Positions 1-10,287 of a stretch of DNA of 64,000 nucleotides are shown one piece after another. Every line of letters begins with the position of its first letter. The stretch's first letter is position 1. Source of the DNA: Vicinamibacterales bacterium (GTDB lineage: Bacteria; Acidobacteriota; Vicinamibacteria; Vicinamibacterales; UBA8438); assembly GCA_965222265.1 (NCBI GenBank), contig CBDCTP010000003.1, positions 2,246,280 through 2,310,279 of the forward strand, read 5' to 3'. The notes beneath the pieces are model-generated. The model searched no databases, was not told where the DNA came from, and was given only the letters and a program-made list of their open reading frames with translations. Both the position numbers and the translations under genes were made by a program.

Positions 1-1568
<1,568 letters not shown>

Positions 1569-1765
1569 CGGGGCACGGGGCGCTCTGAGGTGGCGTGGAG
1601 GGTAGTGAGCCTCTATTCTAGCTGACTCAACTATCTATGCTAGACACTACTGGGTGACCATGCGATCAGCATCCGCTGGTGCGGGTCGACCTGGTACGTC
1701 ACACTGCTACCGCACGATCACCAGAGAGCGGTAACCTTGAACAGGCTTCGGAGCCCTTGTCGAGC

Positions 1766-2962
1766 ATGGACTGGTCACGGCTTCTCAGTATCGAGCGCAG
1801 ACGGCAAACAACGAGGCCACAGGATCACCGCCGCGAGTTCGAACGCGACTTCGATCGGGCCGTGTTCTCCACACCGGTGAAGCGGCTACAGGGAAAAGCT
1901 CAGGTCTTCCCGCTGGATCCCAATGACACGATCCGGACGCGTCTGACGCACTCCCTTGAGGTCTCGAGCGTTGCTCGCGGCTTGGCGGGACGCATCGCAG
2001 AGTGGCTCCACCGGACCGGGCAAATCGAGCCGCAGATGATCCGCTCAATAGAAGCCATTGCCGCCACTTGCGGACTTGTCCATGACCTTGGGAACCCGCC
2101 GTTCGGCCACGCCGGCGAGAAAGCGATTCGATCGTGGTTCCAGCAAGAACGCGGCAAGGAACTTGTTGCTCCACTGCGCGACAAGAAAGAACAGTTCGGT
2201 CAAGACTTTCTCAAGTTCGAGGGCAACGCCCAGTCTCTGAGACTCGTTGCCACTTTACACGTACTCGCCGATTACAAGGGATTGAACTTCACGTTCGGAA
2301 CGCTGTCTGCGCTTATGAAATACGTCGCGTCGTCTGACCGAGCGAAGGGAAAGGACGCAGACGATCCCGCTTTCGAAAAACCCGGTTACTTTGCATCCGA
2401 GAGTGGCATCGTGGACGCTATCCGTGACGCAACCGGAACCGGGGAAGCGCGACATCCGATCTGCTTTCTTGTTGAGGCGGCAGACGACATCGTGTACCTT
2501 CCGGCGGACGTTGAGGACGGGATCAGGAAGGGTGTGATGTCGTGGCCCACGCTCGAACAACTTCTCCGCTCCGAGAATACGCAATCTGTCGAGGAATCGC
2601 TAGAAGGTAAGGAACGCATCTTGCAGGACGGCTCCACGGTTTCTCAAGGTAATTTTGAAGACGACATTCACGCGGCGGCGTTTCGAACTTCTGCAATCGG
2701 AATCATGGTTGAGAAAGCAGCGAAGACCTTCGAGGACAACTATGAGAGTATAATGAATGGGACTTATCACGGCGCCCTCCTGGACAACAGCGACGCGCAC
2801 GACTTGGAGAGAGTTCTTCGTCGGATTGGAAGAGAATACGTATATCGGACTCCCAGCACTCTCAAGCTCGAGCTTACCGGGCGCCATGTGATTTGCGACT
2901 TGATGGACTTGCTTTGGGAAGGAGCTAGCCTGGAAAATTCACCACGGCCCCGTCCGCGGTAG
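1766..2962 (+). pseudogene. dgt: Dgt-type dGTP triphosphohydrolase, 5' fragment (interrupted by IS)
   Basis: ATG at 1766 (MDWSRLLSIERRR). Motifs RTRLTHSLEV, VHDLGNPPFGHAGE, FEGNAQSLRL, EAADDIVY and LELTGRHVICDL are collinear with E. coli Dgt. The frame enters IS sequence at 2943 and stops at 2960-2962 after six IS-derived codons (PRPRPR). Confidence 0.8.
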
Positions 2963-4614
2963 AGACACAAGAGCCTCCGTGTGCTAAAACGCTGTTGCCC
3001 ACAAACGTTTTTGGCACAACGGAGGCTCTTGCGTGACGAACGCCACGATACCACAGACTGTTCGGTTCCCGGATCTGTTCGACAAGCCGCTCGTGGCCAC
3101 CTTCGACCGCGAGCAGGCGAGTTCGGATGGCGGGGCCGTGTTGCTCAAGGCGGCCGAGCGGGTGTATGGCTTGGTCAAGGCGTTCGCCCGCTGTCTGGTG
3201 GATGAACGCGCGCCGGAGAAGATTCGGCACACGCTCGAGGACCTGGTCGGCCAGCGGGTCTTCGGGATTGCCTGCGGCCATCCCGACGGCAATGATGCCG
3301 ACCATCTCGCCGACGATCCGATCCACAAGCTGCTGCTGGGACGCGACCCGGTGGCCGGGGGGCGGCTGGCGTCGCAACCGACGATCTCGCGGTTTGAGAA
3401 CGACGCGGGCCGCTCGGCCCTCTATCGGATGGGGCGTGAGTTGGCGGCGAGCGTCATCGAGCGGCATCGGCGCCGACTGGGCGGGCGGGCGCGACGCATC
3501 ACGATCGATCTGGACCCGACCGACGACCGGACGCATGGCGCGCAGCAGTTGACGTTTTTCAACAGCTACTACGACAGCTGGTGTTACCTCCCGTTGCTGG
3601 CCTTCGTGCGCTTCGACCGCGAGGTCGAGCAGTATCTGTGCGCCGCTGTGCTGCGGCCGGGCAAGGCGGTGGCTGCCGACGGGACGCTGGGGGTGTTGTC
3701 TCGGTTGCTCCCGCTGCTGCGCTGCGCGTTTCCGCGGGCGCGCTTGCTCGTCCGGCTCGACGGGGGCTTTGCCACCCCGGAAATCTTCGACTTTCTCGAC
3801 GCCGAGCCGCGGCTCGACTACGTCGTGGCGATGGCCAAGAACGCCGTCCTGCTGCGGCACGCCGCGTCCGCCCTGGTCGAGGCGCGGGCCAAGAGCGCGC
3901 ACGACGACCAGACGGCGCACGTCTACACCGACACCCGTTGCTATCGAGCGGGCACGTGGGACCATGAGCGCCGTGTCGTGATCAAAGCCGAAGTCGTGCG
4001 GCTCGCCGGCCGCGAGCCGCGCGACAATCCGCGCTTCGTCGTCACCAATCTGCGCCAGACGCCGCGCTTTATCTACGAGAAGATCTACTGTGCCCGCGGC
4101 GATATCGAGAACCGCATCAAGGAGTTGCTCGACGGCCTGCAGATCGACCGTACGAGCTGCTGCAAGTTCTGGGCGAACCAGTTGCGCGTCTTCCTGACGG
4201 CCGCCGCCTACGTGCTCATGCAGGAACTCCGCTTGCGCGCCGCACGCACCGCCTGCGCCCGCACGCAGGTGACGTGGCTGCGCGACCGGCTGCTCAAACT
4301 CGGCGTTGACGTCCGCCGCTCTGTCCGCCGCCTCGTCCTGCATCTGCCGCGGGCGACGCCATACCTCGATGCTTGGCGCCACATCGCCCTCGCCCTTGGC
4401 GCGCGCGCCGGGTAGCCTGTCCTCCTGCCGTCTGCCAGCCAAATCCCACAGCCGCTCTCACGCGCCCCAGCCGGCGGCGCTGTCGTTGCCGCGCGCTGCG
4501 GGCACGCCGTCACCCTGCCACGGCGGCTCAACCACGCCGCAACCTGCCGCCGACACAGTCCGCAGGCTGCGCTCGTCCGACAATCAGACCCCACCCGTGA
4601 CCGATTCGACAGCC
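2943..4614 (+). mobile_element. IS1380-family insertion sequence (about 1.67 kb)
   Basis: A high-G+C block (42/60 at 3301-3360) sits inside a lower-G+C gene and carries a single DDE transposase ORF. It is flanked by direct TCAC (2939-2942 and 4615-4618). Size and a 4-bp duplication fit IS1380-family conventions. I could not identify terminal inverted repeats by eye, so the ends are +/- a few bp. Confidence 0.7.
3033..4415 (+). CDS. IS1380-family DDE transposase
   Basis: 460 aa. The N-terminal FDREQASSDGGAVLLKAAERVYGL and SQPTISRFEN motifs are typical of IS1380-family transposases, and the DDE-type body is intact with no internal stops. Confidence 0.85.
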   Translation: MTNATIPQTVRFPDLFDKPLVATFDREQASSDGGAVLLKAAERVYGLVKAFARCLVDERAPEKIRHTLEDLVGQRVFGIACGHPDGNDADHLADDPIHKLLLGRDPVAGGRLASQPTISRFENDAGRSALYRMGRELAASVIERHRRRLGGRARRITIDLDPTDDRTHGAQQLTFFNSYYDSWCYLPLLAFVRFDREVEQYLCAAVLRPGKAVAADGTLGVLSRLLPLLRCAFPRARLLVRLDGGFATPEIFDFLDAEPRLDYVVAMAKNAVLLRHAASALVEARAKSAHDDQTAHVYTDTRCYRAGTWDHERRVVIKAEVVRLAGREPRDNPRFVVTNLRQTPRFIYEKIYCARGDIENRIKELLDGLQIDRTSCCKFWANQLRVFLTAAAYVLMQELRLRAARTACARTQVTWLRDRLLKLGVDVRRSVRRLVLHLPRATPYLDAWRHIALALGARAG

Positions 4615-4854
4615 TCACGAATAATGCAGGCTAGGGAGATACCTTTGCAGGGAACGCCTGGTACGTTCTCTTTTGCTGGCAAGGCTGCTGCGCTGTTTTC
4701 TGATAACTACAGGCGTGTATTTCAGCACTTCGCGACCGCCGACCAGCGGCTTCCGGACAGGTACCACCGTTTGCAGTTGCTCACAGATTACGTGTGCGGG
4801 ATGACGGATTCTTTCGCTACGAGGTTGCACAGAGAGTTGTTCAATGGCAGCTAG
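4615..4854 (+). pseudogene. dgt: Dgt-type dGTPase, 3' fragment
   Basis: SRIMQAREIPLQG...ALFSDNYRRVFQHF...RYHRLQLLTDYVCGMTDSFATRLHRELF matches the Dgt C-terminus (E. coli RCRLLQDYISGMTD). G+C falls again exactly after the IS. Confidence 0.75.
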
Positions 4855-5743
4855 GATGACCGTTCCAGAGCTGAAGCAGCTGCTGCGGGCGGAGGTCTGC
4901 AGGCTGTTCAAGCAAGATGATCGACTTTGGAAGCGGCCGATTGTTGAGATGTTGCGAGAACTCAGGGAGTCGGGATTGCAGGCCGTCGTCTTTGGTGGCA
5001 CCCTGCGCTCGCTCTTGTACTCGCGCTTGTATGAATCTCGGCAGGGCCGTCCAAGGGATGTGGATCTTGTCGTGCGGGGCGCGTCCTTACGGGATGTAGA
5101 GGAGCGATTCGGCGAATACGTAGCTAGGCGCACACGCTACGGTGGTCTCTGTTTGAAACGGGAAGGATGGCAATTCGATGTATGGCCGGTGGGCAACACG
5201 TGGGCATTCCGGAACGAGACCTATCGTAACGCCGGTTTCGCGGAGCTTCCCTTCACAACGCCATTCAACCTTGAGGCGATCGCCGTGGAGGCGTGGCCTT
5301 GCGTCGGCCGTCCTCGGCAGGTGTTTTCCGGCGATGATCAGTTTTTTGAGGGTATCCTTTCAAGGATCGTGGAACTCAATTGCACCGACAACCCGTATCC
5401 GGCGCTGACGGTGGTACGCGGACTCGTGCTGGCGACAGACCTCGGTTGCCATGTGGGGCCACGACTTGCGGACTATATCGTCGCATACGGTTCTTCCATG
5501 ACAGAGTCTCAATTCGATGAACAGCAACTGGGACACTATGGGTGTATTCGGCTTGACTCGCGGGTGTTGCGTTCAATTGTTGAATCGATTGTGAAACAAC
5601 GCGACAAAGTGTCGGTGATTCCGCTGCCGAGAGTCCGTCAGCTGTCGCTGCAGTATGATCAGGATGTGCGCCCGCGCGTCCGATTGCACTGTATGGACTA
5701 CGATTCTCAGCGGAAGCCCAGTGCGCGGCGGGCAGTGGACTGA
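4844..5743 (+). CDS. Pol-beta superfamily nucleotidyltransferase, CCA-adding/poly(A)-polymerase head-like; C-terminal half unassigned
   Basis: VFGGTLRSLL...PRDVDLVV (G[GS]...DxD), a third acidic residue in WQFDVW, and PFNLEAIA resembling the FTINA motif. Its ATG overlaps the dgt stop by 11 nt. Alternative in-frame ATG at 4856. Confidence 0.6.
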   Translation: MAARMTVPELKQLLRAEVCRLFKQDDRLWKRPIVEMLRELRESGLQAVVFGGTLRSLLYSRLYESRQGRPRDVDLVVRGASLRDVEERFGEYVARRTRYGGLCLKREGWQFDVWPVGNTWAFRNETYRNAGFAELPFTTPFNLEAIAVEAWPCVGRPRQVFSGDDQFFEGILSRIVELNCTDNPYPALTVVRGLVLATDLGCHVGPRLADYIVAYGSSMTESQFDEQQLGHYGCIRLDSRVLRSIVESIVKQRDKVSVIPLPRVRQLSLQYDQDVRPRVRLHCMDYDSQRKPSARRAVD

Positions 5744-5977
5744 AGTGAGCGGATTCAGTATTTGTATCGTCCGTGGCTGTCGGACCCGGCGTAGAACCGC
5801 AGCGCTGATCGTCGGTTGACGGTGCCGGACCCGTGCTCGGCCGACCTTGCGGGAGTCGGCGCCGTTCTACGATGCGGACTCGTGGCCCGCGACCTCGCGC
5901 TGGAGGGAAGCGCGGCCGGTTCGTTACAATGCATGGCCTGGCCGGCGGGCGCCGGCCGGGATGACGGGGGACACGCG

Positions 5978-6664
5978 ATGAGACGACCGTTGGTGGCGGG
6001 GATGACGGGGTGCCTGGCGCTGGCCGGGCTGACGGCGCTGCTGCACGGGGAACAGCAGGGCGGCACGCTGGCCGGCCGCGTCACGGTCGACGCCGTGCCC
6101 GAGAGGGTCATGGTCGAGGTGGACACCGACCAGGCCGTCTGCGGCGACGAGATCGAGGACCAGGCGACGCTCGTGGACCCGTCCGGCGGCGTGGCCAACG
6201 CGGTGGTGCTCGTCCCGGGGCTGGCCTGGAGCGCGGACCCGCCCGCGCCGTCGATCGACAACGCCGGCTGCTTCTTCGTGCCGCGCGTGCAGGTGGCCCG
6301 CACGCGCAGCCAGCTCGCCATCACGAGCGCGGACGACACGCTGCACTCCACGCACGCCTACGACGACCGGCAGCGCACGCTGTTCAACATCGCCCTGCCG
6401 TTTCCCGGGTTGAACATCATGCGCCCGCTGCCGCGGCCGGGCGTGATGCGCATCGAGTGCGACTCGCACGGCTGGATGCGCGGCTGGATCTACGTCACCA
6501 ACGACGTGGCGGCGGTGACGGGCGCCGACGGCCGCTTCGAGATTGCCGGCGTCCCGCCCGGGAGCTACGAGCTGGCCATCTGGCACGAGCGCTACGAGGG
6601 CGACGCGCAGACGGTCACGGTGACCGCGGGGGGCCTCACCGAGGCCGACTTCCTCCTGCGCTGA
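5978..6664 (+). CDS. secreted cupredoxin-like plus carboxypeptidase-regulatory-like domain protein
   Basis: Signal-like N-terminus MRRPLVAGMTGCLALAGL. Possible type-1 Cu ligand pattern HSTH...CDSHGWM (C-x2-H-x2-M). C-terminal GADGRFEIAGVPPGSYELAIWHE is typical of CarboxypepD_reg domains. Confidence 0.6.
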   Translation: MRRPLVAGMTGCLALAGLTALLHGEQQGGTLAGRVTVDAVPERVMVEVDTDQAVCGDEIEDQATLVDPSGGVANAVVLVPGLAWSADPPAPSIDNAGCFFVPRVQVARTRSQLAITSADDTLHSTHAYDDRQRTLFNIALPFPGLNIMRPLPRPGVMRIECDSHGWMRGWIYVTNDVAAVTGADGRFEIAGVPPGSYELAIWHERYEGDAQTVTVTAGGLTEADFLLR

Positions 6665-6686
6665 CCGTCCACCCTCGGGCCGCCGC

Positions 6687-8360
<1,674 letters not shown>

Positions 8361-8388
8361 GGGCCGGCCCGGCCTGCGGGTCGCCAGG

Positions 8389-10287
8389 TCAGTAGGCCAG
8401 CGCGTAGCAGTCGCGGCGCGGGTCGCCGGCCGCCAGGCGGTTGCCGGTCTCGGGATCGATCAGGACGGCGGTCGCGCACCCCGAGATGCCGAACGCCGGC
8501 ACGTCGTTGACGTGGTGTCCGCGGCGCCGCAGCTCGCGCACCACCTCCGGCGAGACCCGCGACTCGACGTCGAGCTGGTTGAAGCCGGCGGCGTGCGGCC
8601 AGAACGATCCGTGCAGGTGCTGCGTGCGCACCCGCGGCCACGCCAGCGCATCGTGCAGGTTGGGGTACCAGTCGGGCCAGAACTCGACGATGTTCAGGAA
8701 CGTCTGCAGGATGGTCTGGTCCTGGTTGTCGCCGCCCGGCGTCCCGATCGCCAGCAGCGGCTCGCCGTCCTTGAACACGATGCTCGGCGTCAGCGTGTAG
8801 CGCGGGCGGGCGCGGGGGCGGATCTGGTTGGCGCGCTCGGGGTCCAGCCAGAACTGCTCGCCGCGCGTGCTGAGCCCGATGCCGGTCGCGCCCAGGATGA
8901 CCCCGCCGCCGGTCCAGCCGCCGCTCGGCGTGGCGTCGAAGACGTTGCCCTCCGCGTCGACGACCGCGACGTGCGTCGTGTCCTTCGTCCCGCCGGCCGA
9001 CGGCACGAACGAGCCGTCGGCGTCGCTGGCCGCCACGCCGTCCTCGATGCGGGCCACCCAGAACGGCCAATCCCCGACGTCGGGGTCGTGCGGCAGCGGG
9101 TCGCCGGCCCGGAACGCGACCGAGGCCCGCGCCGGGTCGATCTCGGCCGCGCGCGCCCGGGCGTACGGGGTCGAGAGGAGGCCCGCGGCCGGCACGTCCA
9201 CGAACTCGGGATCGGCGTAGTAGGTGTCGCGATCCGCGTAGGCCAGCTTCATCGCCTCGACGACGGTGTGGACGTAGTCGGGGCTGTTGTGCCCCATCGC
9301 CTGCAGGTCGAACTCCTCCAGGATGTTCAGCGCCTGGAGCAGCACCGGGCCCTGGCTGTTGAAGCCGTGCTTGTAGATGGTGTAGCCGCGGTAGTCGGTC
9401 GCCGTCGGCGCCTCGACGCGCGAGTGGAACTCGGCGAAGTCGGCGAGCTCGAAGGGCGCGCCATGTGCCTGCAGGAAGGCCACCATCTCCGCGGCGATGT
9501 CGCCCCGGTAGAACCGGTCGCGGGCGGCGGCGATGCCCTGCTCGCGGCCGAGGTGCGCGCTCGCGCGCTCGGCCTCCACCATCTTCGTCAGCGTGGCGGC
9601 CAGGGTGGGGAACCTGATCGTCTCGCCTGCCCCGTAGAGCGAGCCGTCCGGCTTCAGCCAGAAGCGGCGGTTCTCCGGCCACGACTCCATGAACTCGAGG
9701 CTCGCCTCGATGGCGCGCGCCGTGAGCGGCCGCAGCGGAAAGCCGTGCTCCGCGTAGGCGATGGCGCGCGCCGAGACCGCCTCGAAGCTCAGCGTGCCCC
9801 AGCGTTCGAGCACTGTCAGCGCGCCGTGGAGCGCGCCCGGGACGACGGCCGGGTCGAGCCCCTCGCCGAACAGGTCCCGGCCGCGCGACCGGTACCACTC
9901 GATGCTGGCCCCCCGCGGCGCCCAGCCCTGGCCGACGACGGCGGTGACCTCGCCCTCCGCGGCCGGGTAGACGAGCACCAGCGACTCGCCGCCGAGCCCG
10001 TAGAGGTCCTGCTCGACGACGCCGCCGACGAGCAGCGCCGTCACCCCGGCGTCGAACGCGTTGCCGCCGCGGATCAGGATCTCGAACGCGGCGGCGGTCG
10101 TCAGCGGATGGCCCGTCGACACGGCGGCGCTCGGCCCCGACACCGGCGGCCGCTGGGCGGCGAGCGGCTGGGCGAGGCCGAGCAGGAGCAGGAGGAGCAG
10201 TCCGGCCAGGGCCGCGGGCGGCACGGCGCGGGCGCCGGCGTGGTGCCCGGCGGTACGGTCGAGACGTCGTGGTGGTTGCGGCAGCAT
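8389..10287 (-). CDS. ggt: gamma-glutamyltransferase family protein (paralogue 1)
   Basis: Start at MLPQPPRRLDRT followed by a hydrophobic signal. Catalytic region GGTKDTTHVAVVDAEGNVFDATPSGGW. The six-frame ORF 8389..12069 is a read-through artefact upstream of this ATG. Confidence 0.88.
   Translation of the reverse strand: MLPQPPRRLDRTAGHHAGARAVPPAALAGLLLLLLLGLAQPLAAQRPPVSGPSAAVSTGHPLTTAAAFEILIRGGNAFDAGVTALLVGGVVEQDLYGLGGESLVLVYPAAEGEVTAVVGQGWAPRGASIEWYRSRGRDLFGEGLDPAVVPGALHGALTVLERWGTLSFEAVSARAIAYAEHGFPLRPLTARAIEASLEFMESWPENRRFWLKPDGSLYGAGETIRFPTLAATLTKMVEAERASAHLGREQGIAAARDRFYRGDIAAEMVAFLQAHGAPFELADFAEFHSRVEAPTATDYRGYTIYKHGFNSQGPVLLQALNILEEFDLQAMGHNSPDYVHTVVEAMKLAYADRDTYYADPEFVDVPAAGLLSTPYARARAAEIDPARASVAFRAGDPLPHDPDVGDWPFWVARIEDGVAASDADGSFVPSAGGTKDTTHVAVVDAEGNVFDATPSGGWTGGGVILGATGIGLSTRGEQFWLDPERANQIRPRARPRYTLTPSIVFKDGEPLLAIGTPGGDNQDQTILQTFLNIVEFWPDWYPNLHDALAWPRVRTQHLHGSFWPHAAGFNQLDVESRVSPEVVRELRRRGHHVNDVPAFGISGCATAVLIDPETGNRLAAGDPRRDCYALAY

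Follow-up and report, generated by a model that had tools for sequence, protein, structure and literature searches.

The closest described relative of the locus treated here is Clover, in which a dGTPase, CloA, is paired with a nucleotidyltransferase (NTase), CloB (Yamaguchi et al., bioRxiv 2025.07.09.663793 / PMC12265719; review PMC13434031). According to that work, the system had been computationally predicted in 2023 by Nicastro et al., and the taxa named for it are Proteobacteria, Bacillus, Clostridia and Myxococcia. CloA forms a clover-shaped octamer with lengthened helices alpha19 and alpha22, which has no activity by itself and needs dTTP, a nucleotide that rises in T5-like infection, as its activator. 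CloB makes p3diT, which occupies a neighbouring allosteric pocket of CloA and raises its activation threshold; in the absence of active CloB, cloA is highly toxic. p3diT has also been reported from a distantly related Xanthomonas CloB (PMC12265719). Here, we describe a 64-kb stretch of contig CBDCTP010000003.1 from a Vicinamibacterales bacterium of the Acidobacteriota (the window; all positions refer to it), in which a low-G+C islet at 1604-5790 holds a dgt-like gene interrupted by an insertion sequence (IS) and, overlapping its end, a gene for a 299-aa NTase. The islet is very probably a horizontally acquired Clover-type anti-phage operon (cloA-cloB) of a divergent clade, inactivated by the IS.

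Other described systems share some of these features. Stand-alone anti-phage dGTPases (Tal et al. 2022; SpdGTPase, PDB 9P8W) are likewise HD-domain dGTP triphosphohydrolases that defend by depletion of deoxynucleoside triphosphates (dNTPs), and the same generic PADLOC dGTPase model matches the window Dgt; they are, however, constitutively active hexamers without an NTase partner (PMC12265719), and the window Dgt stays below the cutoffs of NF041026 (190.6 bits, cutoff 400) and NF003701 (163.8 bits, cutoff 383). The housekeeping Dgt of E. coli (b0160; PDB 4X9E) belongs to the same TIGR01353 family and has the same catalytic residues, but is only 31% identical to the window protein, lacks R29, R34, D37, F41, D61 and N420 of the Clover pockets, and is encoded next to degP with no NTase partner; NF003429 scores it at 895 bits versus 302 for the window Dgt. 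In Hailong (HalB NTase, oligo-dA) and Panoptes (2'3'-c-di-AMP) a constitutive nucleotide also restrains a toxic effector, but effectors and NTase lineages are unrelated to those of Clover.

Homology of the islet genes to CloA and CloB

The cloA gene lies in two parts on the forward strand. The 5' part (1766..2928) comprises codons 1-387 and two bases of codon 388, and covers the residues of the p3diT pocket along with the HD motif and HE dyad. The 3' part (4635..4854) completes codon 388 with its last base and continues through codons 389-460 to the stop TAG (4852-4854); it encodes the C-terminal helices with the dTTP-pocket equivalents of S418, N420, T449 and Y452. Excision in silico of the IS together with one CTAG restores a clean 460-aa open reading frame (ORF) from ATG 1766 to TAG 4852-4854. 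A start at GTG 1679 was considered and rejected in favour of ATG 1766, from whose first residue all homologues align. On the same strand, cloB (4844..5743) is intact and encodes a 299-aa Pol-beta-superfamily NTase with the signature G51-G52...D72xD74...D112; its start overlaps the cloA stop by 11 nt (4844..4854, forward strand; junction ...ELFNG* / ATGG...). A preliminary description of this DNA, made from the sequence alone, had already reported the 299-aa ORF, its ATG at 4844, the 11-nt overlap and the motifs it quoted, all of which we reproduced. Its assignment of the upstream gene to the E. coli Dgt-type family with intact HD motifs also held, and all catalytic residues are present. The statement that the islet holds only two native genes was correct, alongside the IS. 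The description had noticed the IS, since it spoke of an 'IS-free reconstructed operon', but its title and text understated that the effector gene is a pseudogene.

Searched against the whole PDB, the reconstructed window Dgt found its best match in Salmonella CloA (9P8S-V; 270 bits, E 2e-79, residues 3-456 versus 5-462). E. coli Dgt, the top non-CloA protein, reached 182 bits and SpdGTPase 93 bits. Family membership is clear from TIGR01353 (317 bits, cutoff 152) and from the PADLOC dGTPase model (241 bits). The NCBIfam ranking is the same for the window Dgt and for Salmonella CloA, with NF002205 nearest to both; the assignment to the CloA lineage rests on these search scores and this ranking, not on a formal phylogeny.

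A dgt on the B. thuringiensis plasmid pBT62A (L037, 3992-6116) passes the 'equivalog' cutoff of NF002205 (458 versus 439 bits) and has a CloB homologue downstream of it. The proteins captured by this 'housekeeping-style' dGTPase model may for the most part be Clover CloAs. Two details of the preprint also deserve mention: its Data Availability text gives 8P9S-8P9V, whereas the PDB entries that match CloA are 9P8S-9P8V, and residue 377, which is E in the Salmonella sequence, appears in its text as 'Q377' (PMC12265719).

Downstream of cloA in the Salmonella Clover locus (L038) we identified a 277-aa ORF with D71 and D73, as in the D71A/D73A mutant of the original report. The window CloB aligns with it by BLASTP at E 4e-11, with D72/D74 placed on D71/D73, and by hhalign at 96.4% (E 1.4e-9). 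A hidden Markov model of the window clade recovers CloB of Salmonella (E 1.6e-7), Phaeobacter (4e-18) and B. thuringiensis (7e-16) at Z = 1.84e9. Fourteen positions are invariant across the CloBs compared, namely F50, G51, G52, R55, D72, D74, G100, G101, D112, W114, T119, L135, P184 and R192. The active-site pattern [D/E]h[D/E]...h[D/E]h is present in them, with its three acidic residues D72, D74 and D112 unchanged throughout. The window locus therefore resembles Clover in several respects: gene order and strand are the same and the ORFs overlap; its CloA, of the Dgt family, has the HD motif and HE dyad and keeps the residues that bind phosphate in either allosteric pocket; and its CloB is, as in Clover, a Pol-beta NTase of ~230-300 aa outside any Pfam or NCBIfam family, with GG...DxD...D at the same positions.

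To map CloA residues we used the numbering of the Salmonella protein and compared the reconstructed window protein with 28 paired loci. The catalytic residues H69, H117, D118, H126, E129 and D242 are kept in the window CloA and in 28/28 paired loci. The same holds for R29, R34, D37, R38, F41, N181 and R314 of the p3diT pocket, which are invariant in the window and all 28 loci; in E. coli Dgt, R29, R34, D37 and F41 are replaced by E, S, G and N, respectively. Three of the arginines, R29, R34 and R38, are those of the inhibitor pocket mutated in the 3RA variant (PMC12265719). In the dTTP pocket, R47, D61, S418, N420 and T449 are kept, and Y452 is replaced by F in 28/28 loci. This pattern suggests that the regulatory architecture is retained in the clade CloA, whose two nucleotides may be others than p3diT and dTTP.

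As regards CloB, an AlphaFold2 model built from the family alignment reached a pLDDT of 85.9 and a pTM of 0.81, with residues 268-299 disordered. Among the Foldseek matches in the PDB, the best 28 consist entirely of class-II CCA-, A- or CC-adding enzymes and bacterial poly(A) polymerase (E 1e-8 to 1.8e-5, TM(query) ~0.5, 208-282 aligned columns), in agreement with the CCA-adding-like head recognised in the preliminary description; CD-NTases and Hailong HalB appear only marginally (E ~1e-2 to 5e-2). In this model, the C-terminal half, which that description could not place, corresponds to the helical neck, and the predicted fold is a class-II CCA-like head with its neck. The fold appears to derive from class-II CCA-adding/poly(A) polymerase-type enzymes and not from CD-NTases. 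What it shares with these enzymes (PF01743), beyond structure, would be template-independent addition to a 3'-OH, a chemistry that would fit the joining of two dNTPs into a 5'-triphosphorylated dinucleotide. It differs from them in having no significant sequence match, and their tRNA-binding body and tail domains are missing from the 299-aa protein. Motif B of CCA enzymes, 'RRD', appears to be replaced in the window CloB clade by an invariant 'TT' (TTxFNLEA).

Of the checks suggested in the preliminary description, PADLOC recognised the Dgt, as did NCBIfam. For the 299-aa protein, nothing was found above threshold in PADLOC, NCBIfam or Pfam, which contain no CloB model; the only hits were NTP_transf_5 (E 0.0027) and DUF2204 (E 0.023), and no PF01743 (PolyA_pol) match was seen at E <= 0.1. 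A sequence search of the PDB with the NTase gave no real match, a CloB structure not having been deposited.

As expected from homology to the systems characterised in Salmonella and E. coli, the pair would work as follows. CloA, an HD-domain dGTP triphosphohydrolase, would be activated allosterically by a phage-induced rise of a dNTP (dTTP in the characterised system) and would then drain dGTP, so that phage DNA replication would be blocked. CloB, as a template-independent Pol-beta NTase, would constitutively produce a short dinucleotide with a 5'-triphosphate (p3diT where characterised), which in a second allosteric pocket would hold CloA off in uninfected cells. Translational coupling of the two genes would ensure that no effector is made without its restrainer. 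The IS1380 insertion after codon 387 of cloA removes the C-terminal 72 residues and with them part of the activator pocket. For the phyla considered below, what the two enzymes do, which nucleotides serve as signals and a role against phages are inferred from the same homology.

Interruption of cloA and decay of the pair

The element within cloA is an IS of the IS1380 family (2929..4630, forward strand), 1,702 bp long with 67.6% G+C and present as a single copy in the window. It carries a gene for a 460-aa DDE transposase (3033..4415, forward strand; Pfam DDE_Tnp_1_4 408 bits, NCBIfam NF033539 transpos_IS1380 348 bits, cutoff 180). Its terminal inverted repeats, CCTGGAAAATTC / CCTGCATTATTC, are 12 bp long and imperfect, with 9/12 positions matching, and it is flanked by target-site duplications CTAG on the left (2925..2928) and on the right (4631..4634). 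The DDE transposase, the size of ~1.7 kb, the terminal inverted repeats and the 4-bp target duplication are all those of the IS1380 family. A related Vicinamibacterales contig from a metagenome-assembled genome (MAG; L001) is 90-95% identical over the region from the ABC exporter through the islet to ettA and has no IS; its sequence reads through the insertion site with a single target copy, which is CAAG there. The insertion is demonstrated because this empty site is present in L001.

In its present state the cloA frame runs into the IS and stops at 2960-2962, yielding a product of ~398 aa without the last 72 residues; the equivalents of S418 to Y452 are encoded downstream of the IS and hence fall outside this truncated product. 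As found, the system is not functional, because the IS interrupts cloA after codon 387: cloA is currently a pseudogene, the system is dead in this genome and cloB is an orphan, though intact. A sigma-70-like promoter match (GTGACC-17-AATAAT; 4597..4625, forward strand) falls within the right-hand end of the IS and faces the cloA remnant and cloB. Two such sites were found versus 0.9 +/- 1.0 expected in shuffles, and it is at best possible that this one acts as an outward promoter that keeps the orphan cloB expressed. A scan for promoters and terminators returned numbers no different from chance. A stretch of ~111 nt ahead of the cloA ATG (window 1630-1740) is absent from the otherwise collinear L001, which reflects either a deletion in L001 or a small insertion in the window, in a putative promoter/leader region.

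Between the window and L001, the ratio of non-synonymous to synonymous substitution (dN/dS) is 0.17 for cloB and 0.11-0.17 for the segments of cloA. Purifying selection acted on both genes during most of the period since these lineages diverged, so that the inactivation of cloA is recent. It occurred independently in the two, by the IS1380 element in the window and by a frameshifting deletion of ~89 nt in L001 (L001:9516-9517, corresponding to window 2564-2652). Elsewhere, cloA of L023 is split by an IS66-family element (PF03050, 127 bits; L023:7399-9189), and in L009 it is cut off after ~residue 196 with cloB open (L009:9408-10006); the loci L034 and L035 have decayed as well. Destruction of cloA with survival of cloB is thus seen in the window, L001, L009 and L023. 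Such effector-first loss matches the toxicity logic of Clover, because loss of cloB first would be lethal, and offers natural-history support for the toxin/restrainer arrangement, although as an indirect hint.

Genomic setting and distribution of the pair

The native DNA of the islet (1604-2928 and 4635-5790) has a G+C content of 56.6% versus 72.8 +/- 2.2% in same-sized windows elsewhere (z = -7.4), the lowest value outside the islet being 66.6%. It is the sole low-G+C stretch in the 64 kb. The hand counts of the preliminary description (33/60, 31/60 and 45/60) were exact on recount. At third codon positions (GC3), both islet genes have 64% G+C versus 94-98% in the flanking genes, namely an ABC exporter gene (48-1568) on one side and a CarboxypepD_reg-domain gene (5816-6664) and ettA (6687-8360) on the other. 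The islet, which contains the two native genes and the one IS, is horizontally acquired, foreign DNA. No tRNA or att-like feature was found beside it, and no Rfam family in window positions 1-9000.

The 299-aa NTase has 278 relatives in a 90%-identity collection, all of ~290 aa and all unannotated, and an exhaustive profile search for the CloB-like family returned 1,319 clusters at 50% identity, where the Clover paper counted ~650 CloB homologues (PMC12265719). A representative search also brought up two unusual architectures. In P0384 (739 aa), a TIR domain (TIR_2, E 3.4e-21) and a long C-terminal region are joined to a CloB-like NTase, and CloB-type NTases may accordingly be wired to effectors other than dGTPases; in P0257 (405 aa), an HD domain (E 1.3e-8) is inserted between the GG and DxD motifs of a CloB-like protein.

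Scanning one genome per species, we obtained 35 NTase loci from at least eight phyla. They come from Acidobacteriota, Planctomycetota, Verrucomicrobiota, Chloroflexota (Limnocylindria), Nitrospirota (Nitrospirales), Sericytochromatia and Acidimicrobiia, and also from MAGs labelled Spirochaetia and one MAG labelled Rhizobium. Acidobacteriota, Planctomycetota, Verrucomicrobiota, Chloroflexota and Nitrospirota, among other host phyla of the clade, do not figure in the taxa named for Clover (PMC12265719). In 34/35 loci, the gene immediately before that of the NTase, on the same strand, encodes a Dgt homologue, 52-68% identical where intact; the two-gene module put forward as a candidate in the preliminary description is thus a conserved one. 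Overlaps of cloA and cloB measure 11 nt at 18 loci and 8 nt at another 11, with one locus at 23 nt; conservation of this overlap and of the junction ...ELFNG*/ATGG... argues for translational coupling. Among plasmid matches to the NTase, 8/9 are directly downstream of a CloA-like dgt, and in Phaeobacter and Bacillus plasmids the unannotated genes in that position proved to be CloB homologues. Intact pairs exist in two cultured isolates, Terriglobus sp. 2YAB30_2 (L013, NZ_JBFRFJ010000006.1) and Maioricimonas sp. JC845 (L017, NZ_JBFEFK010000003.1).

The chromosomal site of the window is common only to L001; other related Vicinamibacterales genomes carry the pair at different sites. Its neighbours elsewhere include type IV secretion system genes, IS21, Mu and IS110 transposases, BrnT/BrnA pairs, DNA methyltransferases and a Schlafen-AlbA_2/HATPase gene, together with restriction-modification and MADS-like matches. 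Viewed over all these sites, whose neighbours include plain housekeeping genes as well, the pair is a mobile accessory module whose association with defence islands is partial and not exclusive. The preliminary description had proposed to test for recurrence in defence islands, and it was seen to this extent.

On at least one large MAG contig, L041, found through the CloB homologue P0075, an orphan N6/N4 DNA methyltransferase and an ankyrin-repeat protein are encoded directly upstream of the pair (7169-8497 and 5668-7155). Among 129 neighbouring ORFs of the GTDB loci, five match PADLOC 'mad2' and two an ankyrin model. Neither viral carriage nor a phage-encoded anti-Clover CloB was found in IMG/VR with patterns of the clade or in annotated phage genomes with the window or Salmonella CloB.

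Alternative readings and significance

Several observations weigh against a Clover-type operon. Identity to the characterised proteins is low (38% for CloA, 20-24% for CloB), and PADLOC 2.0 has no CloB model, while its generic dGTPase model cannot separate Clover from other dGTPases. Many neighbours of the pair are housekeeping genes (e.g. Mur ligases, TonB receptors). In L020 (10001-10759), two in-frame stops break cloB although the ORF of cloA is open, which would be unexpected if CloA alone were always toxic; this exception may be an error of a long-read MAG or reflect a silently inactivated cloA. Within CloA, the base readers of p3diT are changed clade-wide (N75 to S/C, Q311 to A/S/T), and so are those of the switch (N175 to A, Q127 to A/S). 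Q172H and K256R in the activator pocket are further changes, confined to the window copy.

Because base-reader and switch residues differ, the signals of the clade are possibly other than p3diT and dTTP. It is possible, although we consider it doubtful, that the pair follows a Clover-like logic with a different chemistry, CloB making another dinucleotide and/or CloA responding to another trigger. The clade-wide substitutions, including that of Y452 in 28/28 loci, are consistent with this, and so is CloB itself, which at its low identity to canonical CloBs is longer and has additional invariant motifs, with the long blocks TTxFNLEAxAVE, SGDDQFFEGI and HYG absent from Salmonella CloB. Yet the phosphate-binding arginines, D37 (the T2 base contact), F41, R314 and the dTTP base contacts D61/T449 are invariant, the CloA of B. 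thuringiensis too has S at N75, and a CloB as distant as that of Xanthomonas is also reported to make p3diT (PMC12265719). That the clade, centred on Acidobacteriota and Planctomycetota, is a distinct signalling variant of Clover in which another nucleotide is made and/or sensed seems to us rather unlikely; were it so, an orphan cloB left after loss of the effector might keep producing its signal.

The structural matches of the NTase to CCA-adding, A-adding and poly(A) polymerase enzymes, along with a sub-threshold PolyA_pol head match of the B. thuringiensis CloB (E 4.8e-4), could be taken to mean that it modifies tRNA or RNA 3' ends, as a CCA-adding/poly(A)-like repair enzyme or a MenT/AbiEii-like toxin, and acts together with Dgt through RNA. 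We regard this as highly improbable. The matched chains have 342-517 residues, whereas the window protein has 299 with a disordered tail and without a tRNA-binding body or tail, and Pfam gives no significant PolyA_pol match. A separate housekeeping PolyA_pol gene lies near the pair in L041, and for CloB, to which the protein is homologous, the product demonstrated is a dinucleotide bound by CloA. Nor is the NTase a toxin that needs cloA, because orphan cloB persists without cloA in several genomes. The tRNA-modifying enzyme was accordingly rejected on the CloB homology and the missing tRNA-binding domains, and the tRNA 3'-end chemistry implied in the preliminary description is unlikely, the characterised CloB making p3diT. 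No more credible is an ordinary housekeeping dgt beside an unrelated conserved hypothetical gene, with incidental low G+C and no role in defence. The ABC exporter and ettA in the window are housekeeping genes, as are the Mur ligases and TonB receptors at many other loci, and no second dgt was found within the 64-kb window, to which this search was confined. Against it stand the GC3 contrast with the flanking genes, the occurrence of the pair at different chromosomal sites in related genomes and on plasmids, and its patchy spread over at least eight phyla at 45-68% identity, which does not follow taxonomy. Most residues of the Clover-specific allosteric pockets are kept in the window protein, yet a number of them are absent from the E. 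coli housekeeping Dgt, and the genes have been lost repeatedly by IS insertion or deletion and are therefore dispensable. This reading was rejected on composition, mobility and pocket residues.

The Clover assignment accounts for the pairing that the preliminary description had put forward as undescribed: it has been published as CloA/CloB (PMC12265719), while the description's proposal of a defence-type, dNTP-depleting module finds support. The locus differs from the characterised systems in its host phylum, in the changed Q311 and N75, in its longer CloB and in the IS1380 element that interrupts cloA; it is a divergent, recently IS-inactivated member of Clover in a phylum that the original report does not mention by name. 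The concept is unchanged, since the mechanism of Clover is already published. What the finding adds is range: Clover, so far characterised in enterobacteria, is extended to Acidobacteriota, Planctomycetota, Verrucomicrobiota, Chloroflexota, Nitrospirota and Sericytochromatia of soil and aquatic habitats. The CloB-like family, with its 1,319 clusters against ~650 homologues, is larger than reported, and a name can now be given to the ~290-aa 'hypothetical protein' whose gene lies downstream of NF002205-like dgt genes.

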